A stretch of DNA of 60,072 nt, counting the filler, from Sluysia triapertura (lineage: Eukaryota), in the NCBI GenBank assembly GCA_046118255.1. It is 5 parts of 5 records of this genome, joined end to end, with 100 filler letters (N's around TTAATTAATTAA, not from the genome) between each part and the next. Parts side by side here need not be neighbours in the genome. Positions count along the whole stretch, not along the records: positions 36,480 to 47,337 come from JBJNIA010192539.1; 4 more parts are not named here. One strand, 5' to 3'. Positions 3,620 through 59,351 of this stretch are shown piece by piece. The notes under the pieces are model-generated. The model did not search any database. It was not told the origin of the DNA and worked only from the letters and a program-made list of their open reading frames with translations. How positions within the stretch are numbered: the stretch's first letter is position 1; every line of letters starts with the position of its first letter. Both the position numbers and the translations under genes were made by a program.

Positions 3620-4568
3620 AAGTGGTGCCTCTACTTCTGGAAGTCGCTTTGTAACGTGACAATTTCGTAATTAAAGCCCCTTTTTCCTTGTAAATGCCCT
3701 AATCGGTTCCAAGCCTCCAAAATTCAAACATAATTGTTTTATAAATTATAAAATGCAATAAATAGATGCTTGAATTAGATTATTGCACAATAAGCATAAA
3801 AATGAGAGTTATACATTATGTAAATAATGAAAAAAGAATCATGAATTAAAGTTTTATTCTATCACAATTTTAACAATTAAACTCTTGTTTTAAGTGATAT
3901 TGTCATTACTTTTCGCTTTCTTCGACTCAAGTTCACTATCAGTAGGGTTACTGCCTGACGTGATCCAAAGACGTTTGGTTTCGAAAATATGCAAGGCAAA
4001 CATCATAATAGTGAGCGATTGCCCGACTTGTGAACAGTTTTTCTGAGTGATTCATGGAATTTTCCTAAAATATCTTTATTTTGATTGACGGAATAATGGT
4101 ACTTGCCTTTTCGCAAATTATGGTCTCCATCTATCCATACAAGGTCATCGCAAACCTTCTCTTCGAAATGACAAAGTGACCTTTGGAATGGGTCACAGCT
4201 TTTTGGGCTTCTTTTTGTTTTAATATCTTACCTATTGTAGATGGATAAAGGCCATATTCTTTAGTAGATCAACCAAACGCATTCCTTTTTCGTACTTTTC
4301 TATTATCTCTTGCTTTTTTTGTATGGACAAAACATCTCTCCTTTTTCCACCACTTTCTTGGGATCCGTAGTTATTAAAAGTGTAACAAAATTTGACAAAT
4401 TTAGATCTTTATTAAAATCTGAAAACTCAAATATTTAAACAAAATCAAGTAATAAGTATTTTGAAGTTTTCACCTTTCCTTTCGTGAAATGTCTTTTGTA
4501 ACCCGAGGTAATATTTTTCCGAGGAGGCGTTTCGTGTGTAGATCCTTTCATAAGTAGAGGTACCACTT
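3620..4568 (-). mobile_element. Internally deleted Tigger/pogo DNA transposon
   Basis: Imperfect TIRs: AAGTGGTGCCTCTACTT at ~3620 and AAGTGGTACCTCTACTT (reverse complement) ending ~4568. The minus strand encodes a frameshifted CENP-B-type HTH (KRRDVLSIQKKQEIIEKYEKGMRLVDL..STIGKILKQKE..ETIICEKA) joined to a TIGD1-like tail (HSEKLFTSRAIAHYYDVCLAYFRNQTSLD). The DDE core is missing. Confidence 0.85.
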
Positions 4569-8129: not shown

Positions 8130-9652
8130 AGATGGTAATAGTGGAGGTGGCTTACGTGATGCGTTTATTTTATCTGAACACTATCATTTCCTCCAACAGA
8201 ATCTAAGGTAATCTTAACATCATCCTTTATTACTTGACCTTCATCGATTTATTTTTCATGAATTGTTGTCTCAATTTTGCCATCATCAATTGTAATATGC
8301 TTTTTAGTGCTACTTTCAAAAGTTTTCAAAGTGACACAACTATTCTTTAATAAAATTCATAATATTATCACCTTGATAAATAGATATTGTTCCAGAACCT
8401 TGAATAATTGCAGTTTCATTGCCTACATTATCTCTATTCTCTTCATTTAATTCTAAATCTGAAACATGAAACTTGTTTATTTACCTTTTTCATCACTTTG
8501 TCTGTGACCATTTTGAATATTAGATGTTTCAGGCGTAGCAACTTTTAAATCGGGACTTCCTTCAGTGACTTCCACAGATTGCTTTGACTGTTGAGATTGG
8601 TTTAATAATAGTGTCTTTATAATTGGTTTAAAATAGTTAATGAATATAATGGTTCTAAAGTGTGCTTACCATATACTAGTGGCATCAGTGACATAAAATG
8701 AACGGTTACCAACCATATACCAGATGATAAAATGAACATCACCATTGCTAACTTGACATAAAATTTTACTATCACTAGGGTTAATATTAAAATAATTTAA
8801 ATAATGTTTTTTGAGATTATATAAGGACAATCATAACAATATACTTATCAGTTTTTGCTGGGTTTAGACAAACCAATCGTAGCAGTAGAAGCAGTTCCAT
8901 CGACATTCTTCCGAGAATATTGACACTGTGATTCTTCCTGGCAGTAGCTAGTATCGCTCCTTTTGCCATTAGAACCGGATTTTTTATCATTATTTACTGC
9001 ATTAGCATGCTTTGATGTTGGTTTTAATTTCTTTAGTTTTCTAAAGGATTGATGCATAGATTTTCTAATTTGTTGACCTACAATCATAGAAAGTTGTGTA
9101 TCGCAATTCCAAGGTTTTATTTCTGATTCGTCCTTTTCGTTGATTTTTTCTTCATTCGATGTTTCTGTTTTTATGTTTTCCAAATACCGTTTCTTTAAAT
9201 AACCGCAAGATAAAATCGGATCAGAAATGCAGAATTCTTTAACTATATGCCATTTGTGTACTAGCACAAATTTACAGCTTGAATCTGTTTGTTTCATTAA
9301 AAATGTATAGTAATAAGAATTATAAATGTAATTGGATTTCAAGGAGAGTATCACTTAATTTTGTCATTATCTGTAACATCAACATATTTATCTTCGTGAA
9401 ATTCATAATGACAGATGCTTCTAAATTCATCTACAAAATCAATTTGTCTTCATTTGTTAACCAACTGTAAATCGATGTGTGACATTTTTCATATTTTCTG
9501 ACATCTTTAATTGTATGATCAGGTGATGTAGAATAGATCGCTATATAAAAAAATAACAAATATTATTATCAATATACATTTCCAGCTTTGTGAAATGGAT
9601 CATTAGCATGCAAATAGTAGCCTCTAAACAGAAAACTGTTGTACATGAATAC
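8130..9652 (-). pseudogene. Multi-exon orphan pseudogene with short introns (includes ORF 8848-9354)
   Basis: Coding-like blocks bounded by AG/GT signals on the minus strand (e.g. short intron at ~8458-8485), interrupted by stops and frameshifts; K/S/E-rich; family not recognised. Confidence 0.45.
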
Positions 9653-10015
9653 CTATGATAAGTTACAATTTTATTAATATTGTATATTACTTCTAAATCA
9701 TAAGCTTAATTTGTTCAAATGTTATTTAATTTATTTCAATCGACAAGCATTTGGACTCGTTCTGGAATATAATTAGATTTACCAGGTTTATTAAATAAAA
9801 TTTACAATTTTAAAGTTAAAATTTAAATCAAATTTAATTAAATAGACAGAATTCTGTCTTACATTTCATTCATTCAAATAAATTCCGCTAAGCGGAAGTT
9901 CATTAAATTGGTACAATTAAATTGGTAACTATTAAATTGGTATAATGATATTAATAATAATAATATAAAATTATAATAAGTCTAAATAATAATATGGATA
10001 GACAAAGTTCTTTGT

Positions 10016-10163
10016 GTATCTCATTTTATTTCGATTTAAATATTTTATATTCTATCCTACAATTGCAGTTTATCATAACGCCTCATCTTTAATAATGTTC
10101 AACTTATTCTGTTATCCTTAGTTTGACCTTTACATCCATCCTCATCCTTCACCAATCCCAACA
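10016..10163 (-). mobile_element. Second diverged copy of the same LTR fragment
   Basis: Aligns to 5641-5802 (TTTTATTTCGATTTAAATATTTTATAT...AACTTATTCTGTTATCC...CCTTCACCARTCCCAACA) and ends at CA. Confidence 0.65.
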
Positions 10164-11074: not shown

Positions 11075-11174
11075 NNNNNNNNNNNNNNNNNNNNNNNNNN
11101 NNNNNNNNNNNNNNNNNNTTAATTAATTAANNNNNNNNNNNNNNNNNNNNNNNNNNNNNNNNNNNNNNNNNNNN
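11075..11174. other. Artificial contig linker (N44-TTAATTAATTAA-N44)
   Basis: 100-nt spacer with a six-frame stop 12-mer at 11119-11130; same design as three other spacers. Confidence 0.97.
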
Positions 11175-11564
11175 TGTTTGTTGTTGGATTATTGTGAATG
11201 TCGAGTACATGTTTTTGGTGGATTAGTTAATGTAAATTGGTAATGTTGGGTTTAATTGTGATTTGGATGTTGTGGGATTGTGTATGTAGATTGATTTAAA
11301 CAAGTATGTAAAAGATGAATATATAATTGTTAAAGTATGATAAAAGGGAAGAAACGATATTAATGTTTTTATAAAATTTTAGTGGTTGTAAAGGTTGTCA
11401 CTATATTATTTTGATCTAAAAATGTTAGCAAAATGATTTTATTAGACGTCTGAGATTTTATAAAGATGAGTGTTGTAAATGATGTATTACAGTCTAATTT
11501 TTGTTTGTGTCGTTGAGTGTTATGATGATGTGATGTGTAGGTAGGTGTAAGCTGGGCCACCACA
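11175..11564 (-). mobile_element. LTR-like terminal fragment (TGTGGTGG family)
   Basis: Minus strand starts TGTGGTGGCCCAGCTT at 11564; strongly C/A-skewed; 11175-11300 is homologous to 39380-39500. Confidence 0.55.
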
Positions 11565-11565
11565 G

Positions 11566-12082
11566 GATGATCATATCGAACAAAGTCGTGTGTATTTTTC
11601 GGAAGTTAAGTTGAATGAACAACCACACGCAGAACTAGAGTTATCTATTGTTGTCATGATAACAACTCTTCGCAGACGTCTCATATTTGAATATTACCGG
11701 CATAATATGTCAAAAGTGTACACTGTATGTCAATCGCAAAGCCGTGAATACTCTGTTAGTTACTACCTTATTCTTTCTGTTAATTCTCCTTTATTGCTTT
11801 ATGTTTATTCAAGAAATCTGTACAATTTAATTGATAATATTTTTAAATCGAAAAGATGTGATTTATGATAGGGATATAAATCCTTATCTTATAATTGTTG
11901 ATAGGAATAGGCTGATTGTTAAAGCAATTGATTTCAGTCTTACGTGTGATAGTATGACTGCATTTCACTTATCTATGAAGAAAGTTACGTATCAAATGTT
12001 TCAATTTTATGAAGCAATTTTAATGTTTGCTTTTTGCAAGACACTGAATTTAAATTTTGCATTTTTCCTGGCTTCTATTTAA
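11566..12082 (+). pseudogene. Diverged intronless Ser/Thr kinase remnant, PIM-like
   Basis: HIEQSRVYFSEVKLNEQPHAELEL resembles PIM1 [23 protein letters not shown]. After a frameshift, YDRDINPYLIIVDRNRLIVKAIDFS resembles the HRDIKxEN...KLIDFG catalytic segment. The 5' end is cut off at the 11564 terminus. Confidence 0.55.
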
Positions 12083-12850: not shown

Positions 12851-12929
12851 ATTGCAAACTATTCTTATTACACATTATTAGTAATCATTATGATAAATAT
12901 GAAATATCGCATAACATTTCTAACTGAAA

Positions 12930-13894
12930 TAATTATAATAATTATAGTAACTCGGTAAACAAATGTATTGAGTGGATGTTCTAGTATGTACATCAGACAT
13001 AATGAATCAATGTTACAGTCAATAAGCATTTGAAATACTTGGCCTCGATCTAAATTGACAAGATGGTTAATAAGTTCCAATATAGCTAATCTAGAACTTT
13101 TCCCGCTACTTTTGCATTTTCTATATCTTCTCTTAGGGTATCTGCTTCTCTGCATTGTCTAATAGAGTTCAATATATGAATTAAGGCTTGAAAACATTTT
13201 AAAGAGACCGGCTCGTTATCAATGCCCAGTGAAGCTTTGGATAAAACTTTTCCAATTAGATCTCCTGACGAAAGCCACTTTAAATATTCGCTCAGTATAA
13301 GACTATTTTGAGGAAATGCTTTAATATATTTGAGCAGAAATTCAATAACCGAATAATTAGATATGTATTCAATTAATCTGTTGAGTATGCATGACGTATT
13401 AATTAAAAAAATGAGCATCTTTTTACCACACTGATGAGAAAGCATTTTGGCCACTTTTAGCACAAGGCTGCATGTTACTAAATTTATAACATATGGACTT
13501 GGTTTGATCAGAATCATCAAAACTATTGCTACTTTTTACAAGTGAAGTGGATGATCTGAGTAAAGGATTAAACAATATTTTCAAATATTTGTGATCTTCA
13601 GCTTGACATAGTGCTTCATAAACATTACTGACAAATGAAGAAAGAATTTCTGGTATTGTATGTTGAGGCCCAAAGTATATTAATCCATTAACTTGTGGTT
13701 TGAGCGTTTCAGTTAAAATATAAAGAATTGCTGTCAAATTTTCATCTTTAAGTAAAAATTCTAATAATGATTCAATCAGTGAATGAACTTCTGAAATTAA
13801 TGAAGTATATGAAAGAACTTCTTCTAATGTTACATTTTCTTTATCGAGTAAAACACTCAAATCAGAGGATTCATAAGTTTGTTTTTCAAAACAT
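12930..13894 (-). pseudogene. Intronless, diverged SAPS-domain (PP6 regulatory subunit, PPP6R-like) pseudogene
   Basis: ATG at 13894: MF*KTNL[fs]ESSDLSVLLDKENVTLEEVL resembles PPP6R [27 protein letters not shown]. It continues through ORFs 13423-13860 and 13086-13520 (YLKWLSSGDLIGKVL vs VLNWLNEEKIIQRLV) and 12868-13155 (SRLAILELINHLV...HPLNTFVY vs TRLNVIRLISSLL...YTWNNFLH). Several frameshifts and an internal deletion. Confidence 0.8.
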
Positions 13895-14519: not shown

Positions 14520-14770
14520 ATTATTATATGTTTTAAAATAATAGTATTGTTGATGTTAATATGAAAGTTATTATAAAAGTTATTATATGATAATCATATT
14601 ATAGAACAATAATTACAATAATTATTATATTTTAATACGAGTGGGATTATAATAACAATAGCTGTGGTTCATCATGTACAATGGTTATGTTTGTTTTTTA
14701 ATGAGTTTAGTAGTTTATTTAATGATTTTATGTGATGAAGTATGGATATATCCCATGTGATTTCCCTACA
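14520..14770 (-). mobile_element. LTR-like terminal fragment (TGTAGGGAA family)
   Basis: Minus strand starts TGTAGGGAAATCAC at 14770 and aligns over ~250 nt to 36106-36370 (shared AAACTACTAAACTCATT, ATAATAACTTTTATAATAA). Confidence 0.65.
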
Positions 14771-15129: not shown

Positions 15130-15430
15130 ATGTAATGTAGTATATTTTACATTGATATCATAATATACTAATTTCGATTGGATTTTTAACCATATCTGTA
15201 CAACCAGAATGGCAGGCCCAATGAATCAAAATTAATCCTTTACGTCATGTCAAATTTATTTCATTTAATTTATCGAAACACTTCTTTTCTGTTTCTAATG
15301 AACTAATTGTCTCACTTTTATCAGTTGAAAACCTATAAAAATCGACTCCATGGTCATTAATTTCAGAATTCAAAACTTCCGAATGATGTATATCGTTCAC
15401 AGATTCTTCGTTTTGAATACTTACTTTCAA
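15130..15430 (-). pseudogene. Ankyrin-repeat protein remnant
   Basis: ORF 15245-15430 read through its stop gives EINLT*RKGLILIHWACHSGCTDMVK; after a frameshift, YDINVKYTTLHY. Two degenerate ANK repeats. Confidence 0.6.
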
Positions 15431-15726
15431 AATTCAGTAAGCATTGTTTTCAAATAACCATTAGATAACTTATCCTAGACAAGTAACTTAACTTCCATAG
15501 ACAATAAGAGATCACTGTCATTTAAAATCAACAGATTATAAACACAAATTGAATTAAAATAATTAACATTGAGTCTCGATAAACTTTAAGCTTGCCATCC
15601 ATCTAATGATATCAGTGGTGATAATAATAATGACGACAATCGTGAATTATAGTATTAAGTAAAAGATGATGTAAAATATGTACAATAAATAAATGGTGTC
15701 GTGAATTACTTAGTTGTGAAGGTGTA

Positions 15727-16328
15727 AAATACAAGATGTACGAAGATGTATTTGATGACCTAAACAATGAGATTACAATTACGAATTTTGTTACATACGT
15801 TATGAATTATAAATCTATTATGCAGTGAACCACCACATCGACAAATTTCGAAGGAATATATAATGAATAAAATATTTATGAATATAATTCAACCAATTGT
15901 TAATTAATATTATTTTGACATTTCTATTATTTCATATCGGATAATTCATAATACTAAGTTAAATAAATTACAAATTGTTTCATTCATGTTTTATTTAATT
16001 AGAGTTTATTTCAATTCAGATGTTTCTCTCTAGGTCGATGTAAATCGATTTACTTCAGTAATAATTTGAAATTGTGTATTCTCAACCGCTATGTTGGATC
16101 TCGATTACCGAAAACTTTATTTCAACGCACTACAGATTGGATATGGTACAAAGTGATATTTTAACTCATCTGACTTTATTAATCACTTTTTCTTAGAAGT
16201 TTTACTTAAATTGACCTTGATATTATATATTTAAAACCAGTTATAATATTTATTGTTGTAATTAAATTTTAGATGTTCAAATTATGATTTAATTTTTGTG
16301 AAATAAATTTAATTAAAATAAATTAAAT
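15727..16328. repeat. ~600-bp dispersed duplication, copy 1
   Basis: Same-orientation homology with 22070-22648, including the identical core TAGGTCGATGTAAATCGATTTACTTCAGTAATAATTTGAAATTGTGTATTCTCAACCG. Confidence 0.9.
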
Positions 16329-17257
16329 GAATGAGTTCATTAAGTATTCGACTTACTTTACAACTGATTAAGTTGTGAAGTTTAATGTTTTTTTGTGGTG
16401 AGTACCTTACAATCTTAGTTTTAGTCACTTAAGGGCTAAGTGGTAAGTAGCAATTAAGAAGAATTTAAGCGGAGGTATCTACAAATATTAAAATAAAAGA
16501 AGGTATATTTTTGATAATGAAAATCATCTTTCTTATAAGTTAGAAATTAAAGAATTCTTTTTTGTGCAAAATTTTTAAATAAATTATAAATATTTTCTTT
16601 TCTCTTTTATAAAATCAGCAATTATATGTTAAGTAGTATTTTACTACCGTATTGAAAAAACGGTATCCTTAATAAATTTTTACAATTTAGCAAAATTTTT
16701 ACGTCTATTTTTCAATCGAGTAAAATCGGTGAGCCTTACAATAAATAAAAATACAATAAATTATAAATACTTTAAAGAAGTTTGATATTATTATTTTGTA
16801 ATCGTTATAATTAAAATTTGAATAATATAATTTACAACGCCTATTAAATATGGTTGTTCAATTTTAATGAAAATTTTATGTAGGATTTTACTGTCTCATT
16901 AAAAAAGAATTACTTAAAGAAATCAAACTAACGAATAATTAATGTAAAATCAGAACTGGTTCCATCAATGTAAACAAAAATCTAAATGTAAACGGTAATC
17001 CAGCAAACAAGATTTTTCAGAAAGAGAAATTTTAAAATATTATAATAATGTTAAAATAATGTTGTTTTTGCGTGAATTGTGATTCTGTTTATATCAAAAT
17101 CTGGTGACCTTGAATGTAGAAAAATTGATAGTTTTAAATAAGGAAAGAATAATTTTTTTCAACTTTGATTTGGATTAATTTTAGTTTTAATTAATTTTTT
17201 AGTTTTAATTTATTACAATAATTTATCACAATAATAATTATAATAATAACAATAATA

Positions 17258-17306
<49 letters not shown>

Positions 17307-18379
17307 TTAAAATCAATAAATTATATATAATGTTACTTATGTAGAATTATTTTTAGAATTAATAACATAATAACTGCATAAATATATACATTGTACATGT
17401 ACATGTTGGCATATACGTGTTGACATAACTTTCTCATACGGAAAAATTAGTCTCTAATTTTAAAATAAATCGTACTATTATTCAAAATCAAAATCATCAT
17501 ACAATAAAGTAATTATTGGAAGATCATCACTGCACGTAAAAAATTCATTATCAGTCAGAATTTTTCCAATAACTATAAATTCGTCACTACAGAGTTCATC
17601 GTTACTTTCTGCATCGAAGTCCACATTTGGGGATGTATCTTCTGTTTCTTGGTTCTATGTTTCTTTATTTGCGTGGATGCTATCGGCTGTCTTTTTGTAG
17701 TTTCTGCTAGCACTGTTGTTCTCTTTCTTTCAGTCGGTTCCGCTGGTAATTTCGTAGATTTATTTTTATTTATTGAGTTTTTGATATGTTATTTTTATGT
17801 CGCCTTTGAGGTGGTGAAAAAGAAATAGGTTTAGCAAAATGGAAAGAATCTGTGCAGGATGAGGTAGAAGGAAGTGAAGAATAAGAAAAAAGAGGAAAAG
17901 AAAAAGAAGAAGGAGGAGGTACATTTGAAGAATTAATTAATTTTGAGTCGTCATTTTGTGGCAATAAAGATTCAAAATGAGAAATCAAATCTTTGGCGTG
18001 TTGTATAAACGAATCAGGAAATGGAAAGGGTACCCTAATTTTAAAACGTTCCGTGCTTTTAATATGAGGTTAAAAGATTCTTGGAAGACTAAATTTGTGA
18101 ATGTAAGATTGACAATTATGATGTCAGATAAGATTGCCACCAGTACTTTGTCCTAAAGAGCTGTTAACCAGTACTGGCGGATATCCGCTATATCTTTAGA
18201 ATTAATAAGGTCAATTTCTGCAGTTAATATAGAAACTGAGAAACTTGAAAAATAATCCATAGACACATATTTCTTTGTGTCTCTTTACTCATTAAATACT
18301 TTCTTAATATTTAGCATATATATTAGACTATATATTTTTTCTGATAAAATTTCAACATTTTCAAGGACACTATGAAACT

Positions 18380-18655
18380 CCTCATTAGGTGCCTTTTTTG
18401 CAAAGGTGATCTTGTCATTCAATACTTGAAATGACGACTCATCAGTAAAACATAGTTGATGACTCCGATCATCCTCATTTAAATTTTGGTGTTGCTTAGC
18501 TTTGACTGATCATCTATGGTGTCATCCCACTCGCAAACCATTGTCTGCAAGTCTCCTTCTGATTGTTCTGATACGAAAGTGAATTTCACAATCTAGCTGC
18601 TTCTGCAATGTCATACGATTAACAGTAGAAAGTCTCACCACATGTCTGTCATTTA
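18380..18655 (-). mobile_element. Tc1-family transposase remnant
   Basis: DRHVVRLSTVNR...RTIRRRLADNGLR...KQHQNLNEDDRSHQLCFTDESSFQV: Tc3-type HTH plus the first catalytic Asp motif (FSDES-like); no TIRs found. Confidence 0.75.
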
Positions 18656-22069: not shown

Positions 22070-22648
22070 AAATACACGATGTGCGACGAACTATTTGATG
22101 ATCTAAACTTATGTGATTAGAGTTAAGAATTTTATTAGATATGTTTTGAATTATAGATTTATTATGCAGTGTTTCTTCAGTAAGATTTGATGATATGAAA
22201 TGAACCATCAACAAAATGCAAAGGAATATATAATGAATAAAATATTCATAAATATAATTCAACTATTTATTAATTAATATGATATTTTGATACTTCTATT
22301 ATTCATTTCAAATAATAATTAGAGTTTATTTTAATTCAGATGTTTCGCTCTAGGTCGATGTAAATCGATTTACTTCAGTAATAATTTGAAATTGTGTATT
22401 CTCAACCGTTTTGTTGGATCGCGATTATCGCAAACTTTATTTCAACGTGCTACAGATTGGATGTGGTACAAAGTGATATTTTAACTCAGCTGGCTTTATT
22501 AATAACATTTTCTTAGAAGTGTTACTTAACTTAACCTTCATATTATATATTTAAAACCAGTTGTAATATTTATTGTTGTAATTAAATTTTAGATGTTCAA
22601 ATTATGATTTAATTTTGTGATATAAACTTATTTTAAAATAAATTAGAC
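22070..22648. repeat. ~600-bp dispersed duplication, copy 2
   Basis: Homologous to 15727-16328; overlaps ORF 22038-22262. Confidence 0.9.
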
Positions 22649-24035
22649 GAAAAATCAAATAACTTAGAATTAAATCGAAAACACTTGTGATAAATAATGA
22701 AAATTCAGATTTAAAAATGGAACTTTATAACTTACGACTTATAAAACTTATGCAATAAACTTAACTTAATGATTATCAGTAATCTTCAAAATCAGAATAT
22801 TCAAATCAAAATTTAGGAGATTTAATTTTTGTGAAATAAACTTATTTTAAGATAAATTTAGTATTCGACTTACAAATGATTGATAGATCGTTTGGTATGT
22901 AAATTTTATACGATTTAATTAGGTAAAAATAAAATACTTAAGAAAGTTCGTAATTTTAAATTAAGAAAGTACGTGATTGTTAAATTCTAAGACGTTTCTG
23001 CACAATATGAAAAAAAATCAAGATTTGCTATCGAATTACTTGAATAATTGATCGTAAATAAAATTTTTGCAGTTAAAATAGTAACTGAGGAACTCGCCCT
23101 ATGTACAATTCTTGAAAAATAATTCATTCTATATATAATACATTCTATATGAATAAAATTTCTGTATGTTTTGGATCTCACTAATTTTATCTATTATTTT
23201 ACCTTCACCATAATTTTTGGAGAAAGTAGTTATTTTCCAACATTTTACATTATTTTCCGCGACAAATGTCGGTTGTAAATGGCATATATTTATACACATT
23301 TGATTAATAGCACAAAATTGGCTATTGTGAAAGAAGGTAATTCTGTTTCTAATATATAAACGAAAGCTGAATCCTCTGTTAAACAGTTTAGTAGCTATAA
23401 ATACCCTCTTTGTAGACAGTTTCATGTCATTCTAAAAAGTTCCATCATGTTTTTATGTTTTCACAATGTGACATTAAATTTATCGATTGAGTCAGAAAAT
23501 ATGAGTATTACAAATACAGAGAAATTTTATCTGCAACAGAAATCAAGTTACCGAATACTTATCGAAATTACGAATCATGGCAATACCATAAAGAAATATG
23601 GAGTAGAGAAGAAATGAAGAAGAAGAGTATGTTCTTCCACTTTATAAACAATTTTTACATGGTTCAAAATAAAACAATCTGCAGAATTTAGAATACACTG
23701 TTAATTCATAATTTAATCATATATTAAACTTAGTACACGTTTGTGTAAATCGAATATAGACAAACAAATTCAATAACGTTATAAATATCGAATAGGTTTG
23801 ATTAATTTAATATTCCATGAATTTAATAATCAATTATTTGATTTTTATAGTCTGAAACACTAATAATTATTTCTTTTATTTATAAAATCGATTTATAAAA
23901 CATTTTAAGATTTTGATAAGGTTAGACTTGGTAATGTTAATTTTAACTGACACCAATTTAGTTGAGTATTGAACCTTTTAATTTTAATTTTAAAATTAAT
24001 ATAATTTTTATTTGCATCATTAAATCTAAGTTCGT

Positions 24036-24408
24036 TCAAGCGTTCGTTACAAATATGATGTTTAAAATTTTATGTCGTCTTATGGTTAAAAATTTAGGAA
24101 GATCAATTAAAAAGAAATTAACAATTATAATTTTATTATTTTTGCTGTTATAATTTAGCTTCGTCCAAGATTGATCATCTAAAATAAAATGGCAGTTTAA
24201 GTTAGAGATAAGATAAACAAAAATAATAATTACATTGTCGCTGCCATTATTATCAACATCATAAGAGCACTGTAAAATTTGCAAAGCCGATGGTGTCACC
24301 TTTTGATCCTGAAATAGTGCACAATCCACACAGTCAAGCTCACTTGGTTCATCTTCATTATCATTCTTGATTGAACAAATCTCCAACAAGACAAAAACAG
24401 CTACTTCT
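24036..24408 (-). pseudogene. Truncated paralogue of orphan ORF 37002-37652
   Basis: VLLEICS..LDCVDCALFQDQ..ALQILQ..NVIIIFVYLISNLNCHFILDDQSWTKL aligns with ALLEIYL..INCTDCLWFKDQ..NLQVLQ..NVIISFIHFVYNLYLHFILDDNSWGRL; N-terminus replaced by an insertion starting at 24409. Confidence 0.75.
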
Positions 24409-24507
24409 TGTAGTGGTCAACTTTTATAAGTTAAGATTAAAATAAATCTTACTAAAAATAACCTTACTGACAGCCATACTCTTTAACTATAAACACTACA
24501 CAATTTA
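24409..24507 (+). mobile_element. LTR-like terminus inserted into the orphan ORF
   Basis: TGTAGTGGTCAACTTTT at 24409, close to where protein homology to 37002-37652 breaks. Confidence 0.55.
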
Positions 24508-25170: not shown

Positions 25171-26619
25171 AATAATTAGTCATATAAATTAATGTAACTA
25201 ATCCTGAGATTAAAGTATTACAATGTTAGACATTTTTCATTATTGTTGTAGATGTTTCTAATATTTGTCTATAATAAACATCATCAATTGAGTATTTTAA
25301 TAGGTTCAATTTGTGGTGGTTCTTGATTAAAGCTTGGCATTGTTGATCGTAATGTGACATTTTGGTCATTAGAATGATGATCAATGTGTAAAGTATATTT
25401 GAATAAATTTGAATTCAAAGCTTTAAAATTAATGCCTCATAAAAATAAAATTTGAGGTAAAAAAATTGTTGTGTCCAAAATAAATATTGATTTGTGTCTA
25501 ATTTTGTCAAATTTTAATGACCAATAAAAGCAACTTTCTTGTTACCACATAATTTTTTAATATGAAATTTTTATCAAGGCACACTGTCAGATAATGACAG
25601 TGAATAAAACAGCAGATAATTAAAAAATGTCTAAATTTACAGTTAGAAAAATTAATTGTAAAAGCAATAATTATAATGATGAGAATAATAATAATGTTTG
25701 ATTAAAAATATTACTAATAATAATAATAAAATAAAATTAACATAAAGATAAAAATAATTCATTTTCCGAATTTTTGTGTAATTAATTAATCTGCACTATC
25801 ATTTGCCTCATTTAACGTAGCTTTGTTCGAAAAGAAGTTCTCATCATCTCGTTCTCATAACATTTGATTTGGATTGTTAATAGAACTATTTTGACTGGGT
25901 ATATTTGATGTGATATCACCATATTGTTTTATTCGCGTTATATATGGAAATGTTTCTGTTAGAACATCTGAATCTTTAGAATTTGTTTGTTTTTACAAAA
26001 TTGATGATAATGTTGATGCTGAAGTTGATATTGAAGATAATAAAGAATTAATCGATGGATTATTAGATGACGACAATTCTGAATTTAAGTGTAATCTACT
26101 ATTCACATTGGTATCACAAGAATAAGAATTAATTGCTATGTAAAATCCATCCCCACCATCCTGGAACATTCTTTCGATCATTATCAACTCTAGAAATATC
26201 TTCTTCTTTTTCTTGCTTTATCTCTCCCTTCAGTTGCAAGTTCAAATTCATTATTATAATGAGTATATAGATGGAAAATTGATTGTAGACTCAGTTCCGA
26301 TACTTCATAATTGGCACATTCAACGAATAAACTGTTTCTAGTTTTGAATCGACGATTTTAATGGTAGTGACATTAGGGCCTTGTGTTTGTACTATCTGAG
26401 TGTTGGTAATACGAATTTACCGCGCAGTAGTAATTGCAGAATCTAAATATATAGCATACATTATGTCTTGTACTAACTAGGAAAGAATTTTGTTGAACAA
26501 CATTATAATGGCAATCTGATGTGTTGATAAACACAAATATTCAAACAAGTAGGAACATGGCTAATGAGTGAGTAATATGCGGACTATTGTTAGAAAGATA
26601 AAGATGAAGGATAAAAATA

Positions 26620-30369: not shown

Positions 30370-30531
30370 GTTAATGGTAATTTAACCCTTGGAGAAAATA
30401 TAGCTGATAATGGTGGTGTTAAATTGGCGTTTCAAGTTTATAAAAAATTACAAACTTTGTATGGAGAAGAACCACCGTTGCCGGGTATCAACTATAATCA
30501 TGATCAGTTATTTTTCATATCATTTGCAAGA
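30370..30531 (+). CDS. Single internal exon of an M13 metallopeptidase (neprilysin/ECE family)
   Basis: AG/GT-bounded 162-nt phase-0 exon: [54 protein letters not shown]; contains the GENIAD zinc-ligand motif and LPG..QLFF. Confidence 0.92.
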
Positions 30532-33201
30532 GTATGTATTTTTCAATTATTGTTTTAATTCATTTGAAATATTAAAATAATTTTAAAGAAACAGAATTAT
30601 TAATCAAATAATTGATTGGATATTTGAAATTCCTCAGAGAAAAGTTATAATTCATAATTTTCAGTAAATTAATCAGAATTATTAAATATAATGCTAGTCA
30701 AAAACGTAATAGTATTGCCAAAAATTGCCAAAAAAGCAACAATTTAAAGATCAATTGATTGTAGCAATAGTTTTTTATACCTTAATCTATATAATAAAAT
30801 ATGAATATTGTAGTCAGTAGCCAAGAAAAGTTTTTTCATTAAAAAAGATTTAATGTAGCCCCTAATTTTAAAGAATTAAGTTGGTTACTGATAAAAGATG
30901 ATAATTTATAAATGTATCATCGTGAAAATAATGTTGCAAAATATCTGGTGTTTCAAAAATGTGCAACAAAATGTCGGAAAATATTAAAATCAATGATTCA
31001 GAATGATGTTTTCTAAGAACTTTATTTAAACATTTAATATTTAATATATTTATATAAAATAAATAAAATATAAATAAATCATAAAATAACAAAATAAAGT
31101 TAAGAAAATAGCCTGATGTAATTAATAGCGATATAATTACTGACAATGATGTTAAGCGATACATTTTCAATAATTATTAAGTATGAATTCATAAAACACA
31201 GAAAAAAACCTTTTCAGGTTGTACACCTTTCTAGGACCTACAAAACGCCAGTGCTGTGGTTTTCTAACACTTAATCTACGGCAAAATAATTTTGAGCAGG
31301 GTCCGGTTACTGTAAATGTCTTACAACGTATCTTTGGCGCTTCTGTAACTAATAAGTTAAAAGATCATCTAAAAAGTAATATCTGCTAGATTTTCTCTTT
31401 TTTTATTACATAAAGTAGACGTATCCACAGAAAGTAGCTACGAAAGAAATTACCTTAATATTGCTAACAAAAGTCACTTAACAACAGGATATTTTGCAAT
31501 TTTTCGACTAGAGTAACTAATCTGAACGATCCTAATAACAAATTTGATCCTAAGTATCCTATAGATTAATTTATACGCAAATTTAAATAGGTTTATTATC
31601 GTATTCGTGACAATTTTAAGTCTAAAGATCCCTTAAAATTACATAATACAAACAATTTATTTTATTTTATATTCTAACAATTAACGAACGAACAGTAGAA
31701 TAAATTTATTAACGAGTTACAATTTTTATGGTAAACAATTATAATAATAATAATAAATTAAACAAGAGAAAAACAATTTTTTCTGATTGTTAATATAAAA
31801 TTTTGGTCTAGAGTTTAACCCAGGTTTAATACTTGGGTGCAAAGTTAAATAATTTTACGTGTGATTTTGAAGCTAAATTTATTAAAGCCTAACTAAACAA
31901 GTATTATCTTAATAAATGCTGATAAAAATCCGAGGAAATATTGTTCTTCGAATCAATTCGATTGGTAGTATCTGATTCTCCAAATCACTTCTGAAAATCC
32001 AAATAAATTCGTCTGACGAAAAGTGATAAATGTTACGTTAGCCGCTTTATAACCAAATTTCGAAAGTCCAAATATCACGACAGTAACTTTAAAACGTTTA
32101 TAAAAATTTCTCCGCTGATTAATGTTGTTTACCGAATCTTGTATTTATATATGTATATTTATTGATGGTAGATAATAAATATTTTTATTCTTCTTAGTGC
32201 CATAAAAATGTTTTTATTTATCGGAATTCAGTAGTTTGCTCATAAAATTTTATAGAATTATTTTTTAATGCTATTTTTATTATTTTTCTCACAGTTATTA
32301 AAATCAAATAATTTTTGTATAATGATTTATAATTTTATTTACAATTTAAATTTACAAATTAGAATTTAAATAATATTACAAATTAGAATTTTAGAATAAA
32401 ATAAGACAATAAAATCTTTACAATCAATTATTTTTGATACAATTTTTATATTTTTAATACAATTTTTCTAATATCAATATACAAAATTTCGTAGTATGAT
32501 TTTAATATTTACAGGTTAATAAGGTCTTAAATGATCTAAAGATTTACAAGTTCGAAGGTACCTTAATACTTCTAAAGGTTTTTCAAGTCCATCTCAAGCT
32601 TCCTTAAGGTCGCAAACCCTTATATAGGTCTTTGGAACCTTAAGGAATCCTTTAGCTGTTAAGATCATTATAAATGTTTTCTTTTTCATGATTCTTATTT
32701 CAACGCTGCTTATAATGTTCAATCCATCACTTGGTATCAGTTATTTCTTCATTTTATAGTTCTATATGTTTCTCAGGCATTTTCTGATACCCAGTTTGGC
32801 AATCCCAAATTAAACGTTCAATAATTATGAAATAATTAAATTCCCTTTGTTCAACATAAACTCGGTTAAACTATACCTTCATCGAAAGGTCTTTCGAAAA
32901 CCAAAACGTATACAATTTCAAGTTTGACATAATATTCCTTATTCATACATTATTCACGAAAAAGTATGTATTCGTAATTAATCTATTTTTTGACTTAATC
33001 TAACTTTATGCTGAAAAGTTATATTAAGGGTTTTTAAATTTTTTAGTACTGTAGATATTAAAAAGTAAACATTTGTAATAAATATAAACATTTGTAATTT
33101 GTAAATAAAATTGAAATAATTAATTAATCGGATATTTTCGTAAAATAATTAATTAGTACAAATATTATCTACCAATAAATTAGATAAAATATTTACTGCA
33201 A

Positions 33202-36105: not shown

Positions 36106-36379
36106 TGTAGGGAATTCATCACACAAAATCCATCACATTTCCTCACATAAAAACACTTCACATGTACGCAGACCATTGAACAAACTACTAAACTCATTCA
36201 AAAAACAAACATGACCATCACACCTAATTATCTTGAACTACAGCTATTATTATTACAATTCAAATCGTATTAAACAATATACATATAATAATTATAGTCA
36301 TCATTGTTATATAATATAAATATCAAATAATAACTTTTATAATAATTTTCATAATAGATTTTAACACAAACAATTCAGT
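36106..36379 (+). mobile_element. LTR-like terminal fragment (TGTAGGGAA family)
   Basis: TGTAGGGAATTC at 36106; homologous to the reverse complement of 14520-14770; runs into the contig end. Confidence 0.65.
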
Positions 36380-36479: not shown

Positions 36480-37001
36480 TTTTAAAAATAAAAATAAAAT
36501 TAAGAATAAAATTAAAATTAAAAAATGTAGATTGATGCGGCCCTCCACACTTTAATAATAATAATAATAATAATAATAATGTAATTTTAATATAGTAATA
36601 ATAAAATAATAATTTTAAAAAATATAAGAATAATTATGGCAAATTACATTAACTATTAATTTATAAAATAATTAATTTATGAATTAAATTTTACATTTAA
36701 AATTTTACACATTCAAAAAAGTACATAAATTTTTACATAATATTTATAATATATATTTACATAACACAATTATGCATCTACATTTAACATTACGTTATCA
36801 AACTAAATTTTAATTAAATTAATTAACAAATGTAATTTAAAATTTTAACTTATACAGGATTATTTCTTAGTAACTTCGCATCCTTTTTTGCATTTTGATT
36901 CAAATATTTTATACACTTATTTTGTTATCACAATTTATCATAATACTTTATATTGATTCCTCGATGATGTTTATTTAATATTTAAACCCTTTTTTTCCTC
37001 C

Positions 37002-37652
37002 TTACTTTAGTTGGATTGGGTTTTGTAGTATTAAGTTTAAATGATAGCAATTTGGTATGATTATGAATATTTTACTTTTGAAATCAAAATTTATATAATT
37101 CTTATTTATATAATTAAATATAAATTCGTTGTGAAAATTATGTTTTAAAATTTTATTTAGATTTATTATCAGCGATTTAATAGCTATAACAATTTCTTTA
37201 TTTTTAATTATAACAAAAGTTTTGAATTTATTTGTTATAGTTATATCGTCGCGTATGTTAATCAGCCTTCCCCAAGAATTATCATCTAAAATAAAATGAA
37301 GGTATAAATTATAGACAAAGTGAATAAAAGAAATAATTACGTTATTAGGATACTGCAAAACTTGCAAATTACACGCCAATATAATTTGATCTTTAAACCA
37401 TAAACAGTCTGTGCAATTAATTTTATTAGAATTTACTTTGATGTTATTTTGGGATAGATAAATTTCTAATAGCGCGACATCTGTAGTGCCACGCTTAGGT
37501 AATCTTGATATAAGTTTTATATCAGTATTATACAATTCATAAGTCGTGATGTAATCTTCGCATCTACAAATACTCATACAAACGTTTGTAAAACCATCAC
37601 TAATAACATTATCATAATCAGTAATTTTATTCAACTTATCCTTTATTGACAT
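37002..37652 (-). CDS. Intronless 216-aa hypothetical protein of a repeated orphan family
   Basis: Longest ORF in the window, ATG start, CxDC motif; has a diverged paralogue at 24036-24408. Confidence 0.6.
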   Translation of the reverse strand: MSIKDKLNKITDYDNVISDGFTNVCMSICRCEDYITTYELYNTDIKLISRLPKRGTTDVALLEIYLSQNNIKVNSNKINCTDCLWFKDQIILACNLQVLQYPNNVIISFIHFVYNLYLHFILDDNSWGRLINIRDDITITNKFKTFVIIKNKEIVIAIKSLIINLNKILKHNFHNEFIFNYINKNYINFDFKSKIFIIIPNCYHLNLILQNPIQLK

Positions 37653-37885
37653 TTTATAGATGTTTATTTTATAATTTAAAACATTTGGTAAATCTAATAA
37701 CTTGAGAAAATAACTCTGAAAATTCGATCAATTAATGTAAATATAAAATCAAAAATCATGTTATCATTGATAAAATGGATGAGAGATAACTCATCACATG
37801 GTGAGCAGAGTCACTGCGAACATTTATTTCTTTTTTCGTATTTAACATAAAATAAGGTAACTCACATAATTTTATTGTTGGATCA

Positions 37886-38552
37886 TTATGAAAAGATGTA
37901 AAATAGCTGAATAAAACTGTAACATTTATCGTGTGCTACAAATTTTAAATTATCTTTACTATAGGCAGTCATCAACATGTTAAATGAAATGGCGATACTC
38001 TCATTAATACAACCGTAGCCTTTCAGAAAATAAATTAAGAGAATCATAGATTCATTCACATTATTCATTTGGCTCAATGTAGTATTACTTTTTATATCTT
38101 TAAACATGCTCTACAAGTAAATGAGAATCAAAAAATGTAATATATCTAGTTAAAACGTTCGCTATTAGCAGCTGAACTTGTTCTTTAGAAAATAATAAAC
38201 GCTTACTATATGTATACATTGGATCCAATGACTGAAAACTATAAATTTGAAACAAACTTTTTATCTATTCTAAGACTGGAACTATATATCCTGAATTGTG
38301 TACGCGAATTGAATAATATCATTCTATGACATATTTGAATTTTGCATATAAATTACTAATTATTAAACTAAATAATTTGCTGCTGTTCTCAGTTGATGCT
38401 AGAGAAAACTTCATTAAGATATCAGATATTTGACAAACAGAATCATATTGTTCTCGAAACAACTTTTTAATTTCATTTTCAAGATGACGCAAAGATACAT
38501 TTATTTTGATTTCAGCATTAAGTTTAAAATTGCACTGTGAGTCTCCATCCAT
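37886..38552 (-). pseudogene. Intronless CACUL1-like (cullin N-terminal repeat) pseudogene
   Basis: Read through two stops and one frameshift: LENEIKKLF..ENSSKLFSLII..FQSLDPMYTY..FDSHLLVEHV..FLKGYGCI, collinear with CACUL1 LDGAIDQLL..QHSEQMYSDLI..LQSIVPLFIY..FTEHVAEKHI..IVKGLYTL. Confidence 0.6.
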
Positions 38553-39259
38553 TTTGTTTGTACTTTAAAATTTTTATGACTTTTATTATTATGAAATCGT
38601 TTCTAACAATTTTTTGTGTAAACGTTTATCTGATTAGTCGTCTAATCAGAAAGCGAAAAAATCAATAATCAGTATGATACTGATTAGACGACTAATACAA
38701 GTATAATCAAGAGATGAGCTACCAACAATTTATTTTGATGTGACCATTATCATTGATGACAGCACAACATGTATAGTAAGTCATAGTGTCACCATTGATA
38801 GTGGCAAATACTTAGCAGATTGATGAAAATTAACGTTTTAAAAATAAATGATAACAATATAATAATAACAATAATAATAACAACCATAGCAATATTACTA
38901 TTATTATTATTGTTATTAATACATAAATTCTTCTTAAACCTTACACGATCTGTCTTAATTCTCTTTATATTTCTGGACATATTTTGAATTTAGAATAAAA
39001 GTAATTAAATTGAGTGTAATATCAATAATAATAAGAGAAATGATGTTATAATTATTATTGTTATTAAACTGCATAAACTGTTAAATTCTTTAAAACTGAA
39101 CACAATCTTGCTTTAAATGCTTTAAATTTCTAAACATATTTGAACTAAAAATCTTTAAGTAAAGGTTGGCTTAAGTAAATGTGAAAGAGATAAATTATAG
39201 TATAATTCTTAGTATATTCGAAAGGTTATTGTACAATGTTGATAATATGATTTGTTCTG

Positions 39260-39603
39260 TTGGTACTTTTAAGTTGTATTGTCTTTTGTGTTGTTAGGGA
39301 TTATATGATAACAAATGATGAATTTAAAATGTTGTAATTGATTCGAAGGTGTCGGGTGGATAATTTCGGATGTGGTTGAAGTTTGATTGTTATGAATGTC
39401 GAGTAACACGTTTTTGATGGATCTGTTGATGTAAATTGATGGTATTGGATGCAAATGTGGTTTGTATTTTGTGAGATTGTGGATATGACTAGATTCTGGC
39501 AGATGAACTGTTTTGTGAGTTTATAGAAGGTAAATATGTGAATATTAAAGTGTTAAAGAATTATTTTTTTTAAATTTAATAATAGTAAAAGTTGATCACC
39601 ACA
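39260..39603 (-). mobile_element. LTR-like terminal fragment (TGTGGTG family)
   Basis: Minus strand starts TGTGGTGATCAACTTTT at 39603; 39380-39500 is homologous to 11175-11300 (shared peptide IHN..IYIN.S.KN..LDIHNN). Confidence 0.55.
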
Positions 39604-52773: not shown

Positions 52774-53490
52774 AGGTGTAGCAAAAGTAACCAAACCGCA
52801 GACTTAAATAAAAATTAGATATCAAAAACAACAAATGTAATTTCTTCTTTTACGTCATTTTATGTTATCTTCACTACTATTCATTTCCTTCTGCGAATAG
52901 TAGTCTTTGGAATGACTTTTGTTGCGTGATCTTATTGATTTTGTTCTGACCTGCTCTCTGGACCCTCATTCTTAAAAATGCAGCGAAGGACTGAATGGGC
53001 ATGTTGAAACGGAAATCAATGTTCCTGGAGTCACAGTCTGGGCTGGAATCGGCAGCACTGGCCTGGTTGGCCCATTCTTCTTTGAAGGAACTGTTAATGG
53101 TGGACGTTACCTTGATATGATGAAGACTAAAGTGTTTCATATTGTTAATGAGTTTCCCATTTTTAACAAGATGGAGCACCAAAGACGTTTGATTGGATAC
53201 CAAGAACCAATCGAATCTGACATCGCCTGATTTTTTTCTACGGGGAGTTCTAAAGAACGCAGTTTATACTAAAAAGCCTAGGACAATTGATCAACTAAAA
53301 CAAAGTATTGAGCACGAATGGAACCAAATTGCAGAGGAAACTTGGCAGAAAGTATGTTGCAGTGTTATCAAAAGATGTCATGCTTGTATTGAAGTTCAAG
53401 GTGGGCATTTTGAACAAACCTATTAAATTTGTCGTTTTTTGATATCTGATTTTTATTTAAGTTTGCGATTCGATTACTTTTGGGACACCG
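52774..53490 (+). mobile_element. Internally deleted Tc1/mariner-superfamily element with ~65-bp TIRs
   Basis: 52774-52838 is the near-inverse of 53426-53490 (CAAAAGTAA..ACTTAAATAAAAAT.AGATATCAAAAA). Peptides: VTVWAGIG..VGPFFFEGTVNG..YLDM..QDGAP and SNLTSPDFFLRGVLKNAVY..GGHFEQ. Confidence 0.92.
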
Positions 53491-55441: not shown

Positions 55442-58432
55442 ATGTCCATCTTCAAATTTTGAATGCAGAAAAGCAAATATTTAATTTTCTAAAGCGAATA
55501 ATTTATTGGACATAGAGAAAATAGAAAAATGACGATTTTTTTGTTTTTCTTTTTGTTCTTTTGATTGAATTTTTTTTAGATATTTCCGGAAAATTAACAA
55601 TGTTTTTAATTAAAATTTATCACTTTCTAAATATAGATATCATCAAGTTACTAAAAATATAAAACAATATTGGTAAAATTTGAAATTCTTAAAAATCAAT
55701 ATTTTAAATGAAACTAATGATGCATTATGTAATGCTTTGGAAATGCGCTTTCAGTTAATTACCTTTACAATTATCAATACTTAATATTTAATGCTACAAC
55801 ATTTACATTTTCTCCATTAATTCCAGTTAAATTGTCGAATGATACATACAATAATCAATTATCGGTTTTTTCTAATGAATATTTCATCGTTATTCAAGCT
55901 GAAATTTTGTTTTTATTAAAACTTTACGTCTAAGACTCGAATTTTAACTAAAATGAAGATTGTTCATCATTTTTGTTTATAATGTCAAATTTGAATGAAT
56001 TAATAAATATATTAAATTAATATTTTAATAAGCCTTTGAGTCAATTATGTAAAAAATGTGTGGTACAAATATAAATACGGAAAATCAGAATTCAAAAATT
56101 AAATAACTATGGAGAAAATATTAATTAAATTATCTAAGCAACGTAAAGACAGTATCAAACATATAACAATCAAAAAAATTAACAATAATCACAAGCAAAA
56201 ACAAAAACTTTCACGGCACCTATCGCTTCACAGTTATGCGTTTCGATGCTTTGATCACTGAGCTATCAGCCTCGTCTAACAATTTTATTTTATTATAGTC
56301 AGTTATATCAGTGTTCTTCAAAGTTATGAGAAGTCTAATTTTAAATAAGTTTTAATACATTTATTTTATTGTTATTAGTATTAGACGACAAAATAGTAAA
56401 TTTTTTCTTAATGTAGTATGTTCTAATATGTTATTATTAAATATATTTTAATTTTTTGGTGTTAAAAAAATTTAATTATTTTTATTTTAGTCCGTAGGGT
56501 TAGCGAAAAAACTGAATTATACTATCATTAACCTCAACAATTTTTCATATTAATAAATTATTTCGCTATACACACATGTACACACACGAATAAGTTCTTC
56601 TACTCAATTCATAAACAAAATAAATATTATAGATAACATTTTAAGTACGTGTAATATTTATACTAAACCTTAAAGGCTAATTCGAATTATAAAGTGGAAC
56701 GTTAGAACTTAAGGGCTAACTTAATTTACGTCTTAATATTTGTATACTAATATAATAGTTAATATAATTTCGTCCAAATAAGAAAATCATAACAAGCCGT
56801 CTTCTTATTAGGCGAACTGATCTCCAGACATTTTTCAAATGTAAATAATCCTTTCAAATAATGAATTAGAAAAGTTATCTTTAAATTATCAACCAGAAAT
56901 AATCATGAATAAATCAAATAATTCATTACAAATAACATTGTTTGCTTTTTGTGGATCAATTATTTCTCTAGTTTCATCTGGCATTAAGTGGGCAATAATT
57001 TTTAAATTTAATTAGTTTTTAAATAATTTTAATTTCGATAATTTTAGTGTTTTGAATTACATTAAACAAACTCTAAATTTTAGTATCTCGAAATATAATT
57101 TAAATACTAAATTTAGTCCCATTTGATAGAAAAAATATGTAGAGACAAAAAATATTATAAAAATATTATAGATTAAGCATTATTTTCTTATTTTAATATC
57201 TTGTAACTTGTACTTAACTCTTTAACTTTAAGGGGTATAAGGCAAAAAAAACAAAAAATTATTTATTTGGTTTTAGAATAATATTTTAGCAAGAATAAAA
57301 TTTAAAAACACATTCTTCTTGTATTTATAACAAAATACATTATTCTTGAAGTTGTCTCTCTGTCTATTTTTGGTATCAAATGAAATTTTTCTCTTACCAA
57401 ATTTAAAATGTTTCATTTTAACCTCGTAGTAGAAATTGTACAGTAAAATAACTTCCATAAAATGAAATATTTTCTCTAACTTGATTATTATTTTTGGTAA
57501 GCAATAGAAATTCGACTTATGTAGATGTGTATATTTCTATAACTCATATTACTATTAGACCAAATAATAATAAATTATGCGAGTTTCTATGTCCTGCGTG
57601 TCTAAATGAAATCAGATATTCATAATATAGATAAACGACACCCGTTCCCGGAGCACTTCATCAGATCGCTTATTAACAGCAGCTGTAGTTAATAAAGAGT
57701 TAATGTACCAATCACAATTGATAAATTTTTTCAATAAATCATAAATAAAAATAAAATTTGTATAGCAATTAAAACAAATAATAATAAAAATGACAAAAGT
57801 TACCGCCAAATTTTGAAAAGAGATAAAAATGAAAATAAATATTGTCAGAAATAGAAAAGAATACAAAATACGAGAAACTGTTTCTGAGTTTTATTAAATA
57901 AATATTGGATTTTGTGAGTTTGAAAATAATTATTCAACAAGATTTGTCAATTATTCAAATGATAATTGATGTGGGCTCACTTGTGTGATGTTGTAATTCG
58001 GAGTACATTTTTAAATTATAAATTATTTATATTATGAATTATAAAATTTACTTTGATTTTATAATACATACGATGAATAATTAAATAAAAATGATGATCA
58101 AATTAAAAATAGAATTATTTGAATAAGATAAAGAAAGTCTGCAAATGTAGAGGAAGATAATTGAATTAGATGATGATGATTCAGAGGAGGAGGAGGAAGA
58201 AAAGATGATAATGGTGATTTTAGTAAAGAATATTGATATTATTATTTCAAAATTGCTCAAATCTAATTTCTCGTCTATAATGTATTTTTTGCATGCTTTA
58301 TTTTCTTTTACTAATATTCTCGATTTGTTTTTCAAGAAAATTTTATATTATTATTGTTGTTTTTATTTATTTTATTCATCTGTTTACTCTGTTTATTATT
58401 TGCTTTATTATTTTCTATCTTTATTTTTGCAG

Positions 58433-59320
58433 GTGTTATTCGAACCACTGATCGATTAAATTCCAAAGATCACAAGAATTATGCATTACGTGTATCTGCC
58501 ATCGACTGTCACCTTCCTGAACCTCTGCATTCCACTGTCAGTGTCAATATCTACGTCAAGCATGCTTGTAAATACGGATGGAACGGTTAGTTTTGATAAT
58601 AAAATACAAAATATTAGTTACTTTCAAATATAAATAGCTTATTTATTATAGTTTAATTTTATATTACTTTCTAATATGAATTAAGGTTTTTATGAGCAAA
58701 TCAATTACCAACCAGGTGATGGTTTGAAATTTATTGGTCAACAAACTACAACCAATCAAAAAGGAATTTATTTTGATTTTTGTAACAAAAAAAAGCAAAC
58801 TTCAAATAGATTTCATAATGAATATCAGACAATCAATGAATGCGGTGATAAACAACGAGCCAATGAAATATCAATGCGGATTTCATTGGATAATTCTGGT
58901 GAAAGAAAATGTGAATTTGATCGAGCTAGTGTAATTTATCGTCGTGAACAATGTAGTAAGAAATAAATCATTTTTATTTCTAAGTAGTAAATAATTTACT
59001 AAAAATTATAAAACTGAGATGATTATCTTATTTAGTGTGGAATTCGAATACCATTGATATTTTACCATCAGCTGATGAATTTATTCGAGATGGTTCAGGA
59101 GAAGCAGACGCCGACACGGGAATATTCACATTTGATGGCGTCACTAGCCACTGGGAAGTACCGACAGATGTTATCTCTCCTGATCATTTCCTTGGTAACA
59201 ATTATTCAATTATGTGGTGGATGAAACATACAGGAGAGTTTTATTCACTACTTCAAGGAGAATCTAACAATAACCATAGAAGTGTGAAAGAGCAAATTCT
59301 TTGCAACTCAGATGGAGATG
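58433..59320 (+). CDS. CLSTN: Calsyntenin, internal exons: join(58433..58585,58686..58955,59036..59320)
   Basis: Phase-1 GT/AG junctions. End of cadherin repeat (YALRVSAIDC..VNIYVKHACKYGWNG), linker INYQPGDG, LamG start (IFTFDG..SIMWWMKH..KEQILCNSD). Confidence 0.88.
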
Positions 59321-59351
59321 GTTAATATATAATGATAATAATATTCACATA

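Follow-up and report, generated by a model that had tools for sequence, protein, structure and literature searches.

The locus at positions 37002 to 37652 of the analyzed Sluysia triapertura DNA (the window, 60,072 nucleotides) raises the question of whether an open reading frame without recognizable relatives is a working gene, a piece of a mobile element, or a remnant. The frame, here called ORF A, reads on the minus strand from an ATG at 37652 to a TAA at 37002, encodes 216 amino acids, and forms the stop-free 3' part of a family gene. It sits within a stop-free frame of 241 codons, the longest in the window, whereas across 80 simulated windows such frames reached at most 160 codons. The initial annotation described ORF A as intact; the ORF is real and free of stops, but its intactness is doubtful, and more probably it makes up the 3' half of a 517-codon frame that is broken. 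Its start context, AAAATG, is shared by 7.8% of the ATGs in the window, and its residues include 37 Ile, 28 Asn, and 19 Lys. GC content at the first codon position (GC1) is 0.28, compared with 0.39 to 0.48 in Nramp, two long SAPS-like pieces, and a calsyntenin-like exon. Moreover, a host codon model gave ORF A a negative score, and its 3' half did badly. The strongest 19-residue hydropathy was 1.55 in ORF A and 1.82 in the second copy described below, and with a value of 1.55, ORF A therefore has no clear membrane segment.

ORF A is not the only copy. The window joins five contigs, with spacers at 11075, 24508, 36380, and 47338, and these positions place a second copy (copy B) on a different contig, where it occupies 23905 to 24416 on the minus strand. 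The claim that related copies lie on two contigs is borne out by tBLASTn (32 of 87 residues identical, 37%; E = 4e-12) and by nhmmer, which aligned 457 nt (37014 to 37470 of A with 23920 to 24387 of B; E = 9.6e-18); blastn alone also recovers the pair. Copy B had been described as a truncated ORF at 24036 to 24408. An ORF is indeed present, but 24408 falls off the codon boundary, and the stop-free frame is 126 codons at 24036 to 24416. Nor is truncation the whole description, as the frame contains no Met, is shifted near 24070, and then continues in another frame that matches the end of ORF A, up to a stop at 23905 to 23907 that is one codon off the ORF A stop. Thus, the true C terminus of the family is where ORF A ends. 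The two copies share a core (37263 to 37472, minus strand), and the five motifs reported for it, LLEI, CxDCxxFxDQ, LQ[IV]LQ, NVII, and HFILDDxSW, all proved to be invariant columns of the alignment. Three successive indels (24, 6, and 18 nt) keep the frame. The homology does not extend past the stop codon, and the two copies lie in unrelated flanks, with no likeness between the 3' flanks (464 of 500 shuffles score as well) and none upstream of LLEI in the 120 nt before the end of copy B's contig (282 of 500). Judged from these alignments, the likeness is far beyond chance, and ORF A and copy B are true paralogues.

The earlier proposal that this is a real coding family is upheld by the length of the ORF against simulation, by the frame-keeping indels, and by a signal of purifying selection in the core. 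In the 70 codons of the core, which were selected for their conservation such that the P values carry that bias, identity at codon positions 1, 2, and 3 was 0.56, 0.71, and 0.54, 31 of 70 residues were identical (neutral P, 0.017 to 0.033), and changes confined to the third base were synonymous in seven cases and nonsynonymous in none (neutral P, 0.007 to 0.03). Over all 141 aligned codons, identities at the three positions were 0.65, 0.63, and 0.62, and the neutral P value for residue identity ranged from 0.02 to 0.19 with the mutation model. Conservation had been said to be clearer in protein than in DNA, and so it is in the core only; the 141 codons are flat, and blastn finds the pair. A dN/dS comparison of the two copies, which the annotation had suggested, gave a method-dependent answer over the 141 codons: 0.38 (NG86), 0.97 (LWL85), 0.71 (YN00), and 0.83 (maximum likelihood). 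The 3' 42 codons look neutral, and the purifying signal is limited to the core at 37263 to 37472, with none detectable in the 3' third. We conclude that the coding origin of the family is secure and that present-day constraint is only a possibility.

What lies upstream of ORF A bears on whether the ORF is complete. A broken, coding-like extension in the frame of ORF A occupies 37653 to 38552 on the minus strand and begins with an ATG at 38552, the context of which (CAAAATG) is found at 1.2% of the ATGs in the window. Two in-frame stops (38321 and 38267) interrupt it, and its frame also breaks near 38111, 37936, 37812, and 37729; from the ATG at 38552 to the stop at 37002 there are exactly 517 codons with six breaks. 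The 825 nt from 37728 to 38552 can be crossed with five breaks, whereas simulated sequence needs a mean of 12 over the same length and 0 of 500 simulations needed as few as five. Segments of equal length with five or fewer breaks were rare (13 of 536, at 8.4 to 8.8, 12.6 to 13.8, and 17.2 to 17.8 kb), and all 13 were other broken coding stretches. Moreover, the first two segments of the extension have the coding-type order GC1 > GC2 > GC3, with values of 0.34, 0.25, and 0.22 and of 0.38, 0.26, and 0.19, respectively. All six breaks fall within the first 275 of the 517 codons (P = 0.023 if breaks are uniform), and the break-free 3' end hints modestly at preservation of ORF A. ORF A is probably the 3' half of a longer, broken gene, the alternative being two adjacent genes; the basis for the continuity is shared frame and adjacency, as copy B's contig ends before that part.

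Searches for relatives of the family came back blank. As the initial annotation held, no known domain is assignable, and no match was obtained in any search of proteins, profiles, genomes, or viruses. Pfam gave nothing better than E = 0.01 for ORF A, copy B, and the upstream pieces; PHROGs gave a single weak match (E = 0.0028), which falls in the 3' part, where the sequence is of low complexity; NCBIfam gave a best E of 0.012 against a cutoff of 80 bits; and Rfam gave 0 matches. Among 5.8 billion clustered proteins, none of 719 candidates of near length and, with the alignment of both copies as the query, none of 5,095 longer candidates was a relative, nor was any protein among 1.84 billion representatives. 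Exact look-up returned 0 of 4, the ESM Atlas held no usable match to ORF A or copy B, and the best match among PDB sequences had an E value of 0.1. No relative was found among viral contigs, metagenome contigs, prokaryote genomes, phage records, or plasmids. The collections searched are thin for poorly sampled animals, and deeply diverged viruses would escape them; the blank result therefore reflects the isolation of the family rather than a new fold. Structure prediction, which had been proposed as a check, failed to help: two AlphaFold2 runs gave folds of low confidence (pLDDT, 31.8 and 28.7) and no usable model, and a Foldseek search with these models, which returned nothing at E < 0.001, carries no weight. 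A CxxC and one His are kept in both copies, from which one might guess, doubtfully, that the core serves as a zinc or thiol site. By-eye likenesses to Walker-B/helicase and thioredoxin motifs were rejected as too short or wrongly spaced.

One known protein could be proposed as a relative. The family might be an extremely diverged and shortened cullin, a ubiquitin ligase scaffold, without the C-terminal neddylation domain. A cullin would supply a parent gene and is compatible with the origin by retroposition discussed below, and several cullin motifs can be placed by eye, in order, along the broken frame. Moreover, a frameshift-aware global alignment to a profile of 39 cullin sequences reached a score attained by 3 of 120 profile shuffles, and pieces of the ORF A locus gave z scores of 1.1 to 2.0 against the cullin profile; a control with shuffled DNA blocks (0 of 120) was left out of this evidence because it adds frameshifts and hence is biased. 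HMMER with two cullin profiles, however, found no match, although held-out divergent cullins were recovered at E < 1e-57, hhalign gave cullin a probability of 0.1%, and Pfam reported no match. Decoys did as well, as an unrelated SAPS-like stretch equaled locus A in the cullin alignment (-79.6 versus -78.7), and on retesting, locus A had a z score of 1.37 (6 of 60), whereas an unrelated transposase remnant had one of 1.82. Copy B had z scores between -0.6 and 0.9. Finally, both copies end, at matching places, before any winged-helix domain with the neddylated lysine, and the DNA behind ORF A is a dispersed repeat. Compared with the cullin domains (PF00888, PF26557, and PF10557), the family shares a loose order of motifs and a weak alignment signal (z of 1 to 2) but fails profile and decoy tests, is about 200 residues shorter, and lacks the neddylation domain. 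We consider a cullin origin very improbable and dropped that identity after the profile tests and decoy controls. The cullins taken as references included long ORFs without introns, carried by contigs from the viral collection (L001, 2433 to 4475, minus strand; L003, 702 to 2795, plus strand; L007; L008; and L010), and most of the contigs carrying them are labeled giant-virus assemblies.

The initial annotation suggested that the ORF could be a marker gene for a putative element. The surroundings do not support that suggestion: the flanks of the two copies differ, and no transposase, reverse transcriptase, terminal repeat, or adjacent ORF could be tied to the gene. A Pfam scan of 148 frames, including most frames of at least 40 codons on both contigs (copy B's contig ends upstream of B), found no mobility enzyme, be it transposase, reverse transcriptase, or Rep-helicase, and neither copy has a neighboring ORF. 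Termini or flanks common to both were absent, as the 3' flank and the upstream stretch matched no better than shuffles. An inverted repeat with perfect 17-bp arms and a 30-nt loop does lie 80 nt upstream of the ATG at 38552 (38633 to 38696), its arm being itself within a 20-nt hairpin (38630 to 38696; folding z, -3.6). It is the only perfect, short-loop, nonmicrosatellite inverted repeat of at least 15 bp in the window, and none of 30 simulated windows contained such a repeat. The repeat at 38630 to 38696 could be a tiny transposon or the end of an element, with a putative tie to the gene; no such hairpin was found near copy B, and no exact match to it was found among the viral contigs. Just behind the stop of ORF A, at 36780 to 36960, is a dispersed AT-rich repeat with two further copies in the first contig (5537 to 5802, of which 5537 to 5727 matches the other, and 10008 to 10163) and none behind copy B. 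A G/T-skewed repeat is present both upstream of locus A (39373 to 39560) and at the very start of copy B's contig (11175 to 11345); its copies are about 70 to 77% identical, and the latter lies 13 kb from copy B.

The window as a whole, with a GC content of about 24%, holds both intact and decayed genes. Pfam identified spliced, intact host exons of Nramp (48200 to 51990, plus strand), an ordinary host exon of an M13 peptidase (30370 to 30555, plus strand), and a cadherin domain in a cadherin/calsyntenin-like host gene (58429 to 59322, plus strand), the exon of which at 59035 to 59322 we take to be calsyntenin-like. Transposase remnants are located at 48440 to 48860 (plus strand), 18339 to 18650 (minus strand), 52925 to 53420 (plus strand), 46690 to 47236 (minus strand), and 3880 to 4370 (minus strand); among them is a Mos1-type remnant with a helix-turn-helix matched by Pfam (E = 1e-13), and the others are presumably Tc1- or Tigger-like. 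The Nramp and M13 peptidase exons, the cadherin domain, and the Mos1-type remnant indicate an animal genome, and the calsyntenin-like exon might hint at a spiralian, such as a flatworm. Copy B's contig carries, at 12871 to 13893 on the minus strand, an intron-free, frameshifted copy of a SAPS (SIT4 phosphatase-associated)-like gene distributed over three frames, its middle piece matching Pfam at E = 1.4e-4, under the curated cutoff. This copy looks like a processed pseudogene. It is broken and intron-free, whereas the Nramp exons are intact and spliced; thus, broken, intron-free gene copies exist in this genome. MsrA-like (11372 to 11605; E = 7.5e-4) and DUF4078-like (15248 to 15433; E = 1e-4) fragments, both minus-strand matches below cutoff among the 148 frames scanned, share contig and strand with the SAPS-like copy and copy B, and the series is possibly a string of decayed host gene pieces or in part chance. 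Three other stretches, at 8174 to 9354, 17478 to 18069, and 25789 to 26407, all on the minus strand, look coding but broken and have no convincing match in Pfam. Decayed gene copies seem to abound in this genome. Two repeat pairs were also observed, one direct (15727 to 16331 and 22070 to 22651; 78%) and one inverted (14557 to 14724 and 36174 to 36356; 79%).

How the two copies arose is best explained, tentatively, by retroposition: ORF A and copy B may well be dispersed, decaying copies, probably retroposed, of a lineage-restricted gene. Paralogy, coding origin, breaks at both loci, matching C-terminal ends, and unrelated flanks are demonstrated. The parent would have been a protein gene of about 517 codons, copied without introns and either restricted to this animal lineage or diverged beyond recognition. 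The mRNA of this fast-evolving host gene would have been reverse transcribed to leave both copies as processed pseudogenes, which would first have diverged under protein constraint; later, copy B and the 5' part of locus A would have decayed, ORF A being the part so far spared. The mixed dN/dS values of 0.38 to 0.97 fit constraint followed by decay. The parent protein may have been soluble and intracellular, to judge from the lack of a clear membrane segment in ORF A. Disabling changes are present at both loci, a frameshift in copy B and six breaks in the 5' part of locus A, and probably no full-length protein is made from either. Like processed pseudogenes, the copies are dispersed, interrupted by stops and frameshifts, and set in unrelated flanks, with a possible 5' truncation of B, and they seem to lack introns, as the 241-codon frame has none and the upstream stretch is nearly open; the SAPS-like copy is a second broken, intron-free host gene copy on B's contig. 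Unlike processed pseudogenes, the family showed no parent gene in the window and has no clear poly(A) tail or convincing target site duplication, only direct repeats of 9 to 11 nt, all A/T, being found at the locus, and its codon use differs from that of host exons. Old processed pseudogenes lose both poly(A) tail and target site duplication. Against retrocopies, the break-free ORF A (P = 0.023) hints that it is kept, a separate gene could account for the upstream stretch, and the low GC1 and below-zero host codon score are such as a foreign gene might show.

A foreign source is the substance of another explanation, in which an unrecognized virus or large mobile element contributed the ORF as one of its structural or accessory genes, inserted more than once, and is now decaying. 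The family is intron-free, multicopy, broken, and very AT rich, its codon use is unlike that of host exons, it has no cellular relative, and the inverted repeat 80 nt upstream of the gene recurred in 0 of 30 simulated windows. Parallels are offered by the accessory ORFs of giant transposons and by broken endogenous viral elements: one report describes large animal transposons that bear accessory ORFs of unknown function (PMC6431247), and according to another, endogenous viral elements commonly show frameshifts and nonsense changes (PMC9241645). The resemblance to such elements, with Burro and Ogre as examples of giant transposons (PMC6431247), extends to AT richness, lack of introns, breakage, multiple copies, and unknown function, but not to viral or transposon homology, a linked enzyme, a common terminal repeat, or neighboring ORFs. 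The viral contigs and phage records gave no match, PHROGs gave only the one weak match, and the hairpin is neither near copy B nor exactly matched in the viral contigs. We regard a viral or element origin as unlikely.

We think it quite unlikely that ORF A is instead a working gene, either one of 216 residues that stands alone, the broken gene next to it being unrelated, or a spliced gene of which ORF A is the last exon and the breaks are introns, with copy B as a dead paralogue. The 241 break-free codons next to six breaks just upstream, the AAAATG start context, the purifying selection in the core, and the presence of a few donor-like sites upstream would fit a living gene, but the would-be introns are nearly open and coding-like (2 stops in 73 codons; GC1, 0.38; GC3, 0.19), and selection escapes detection in the 3' third. 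Two sequencing runs were listed as sharing 0.26 and 0.07 of their words with the sequence, neither of them RNA, which speaks neither for nor against expression. That the family is a noncoding, AT-rich repeat in which a frame happens to be open is almost certainly wrong. Codon position identities are flat overall and the 3' half fares poorly on the host codon model, as such a repeat might predict, but 241 open codons exceed the simulated maximum of 160, both copies are open in matching frames with frame-keeping indels, and homology stops at the stop codon. Finally, and very unlikely as a combination, the ORF could be a fossil gene of a virus or large mobile element of a kind absent from all databases that entered this animal lineage repeatedly, and the host could have kept the 216-residue 3' half at locus A as a working gene with a new CxxC/His metal-binding fold.

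We conclude that the orphan coding family is real but probably decaying; no function can be assigned to it, and its link to an element is unsupported. As no relative was detectable among about 5.8 billion clustered proteins or 1.84 billion representatives, the family is unexplored sequence. A source in a virus or mobile element would make it the sign of an undescribed group, and ORF A, should selection be keeping it, would be a new gene arisen from one half of a gene in decay. Ultimately, decaying copies of a lineage-restricted gene are the likelier meaning of the family, and such copies are common in repeat-rich animal genomes and in poorly sampled lineages.
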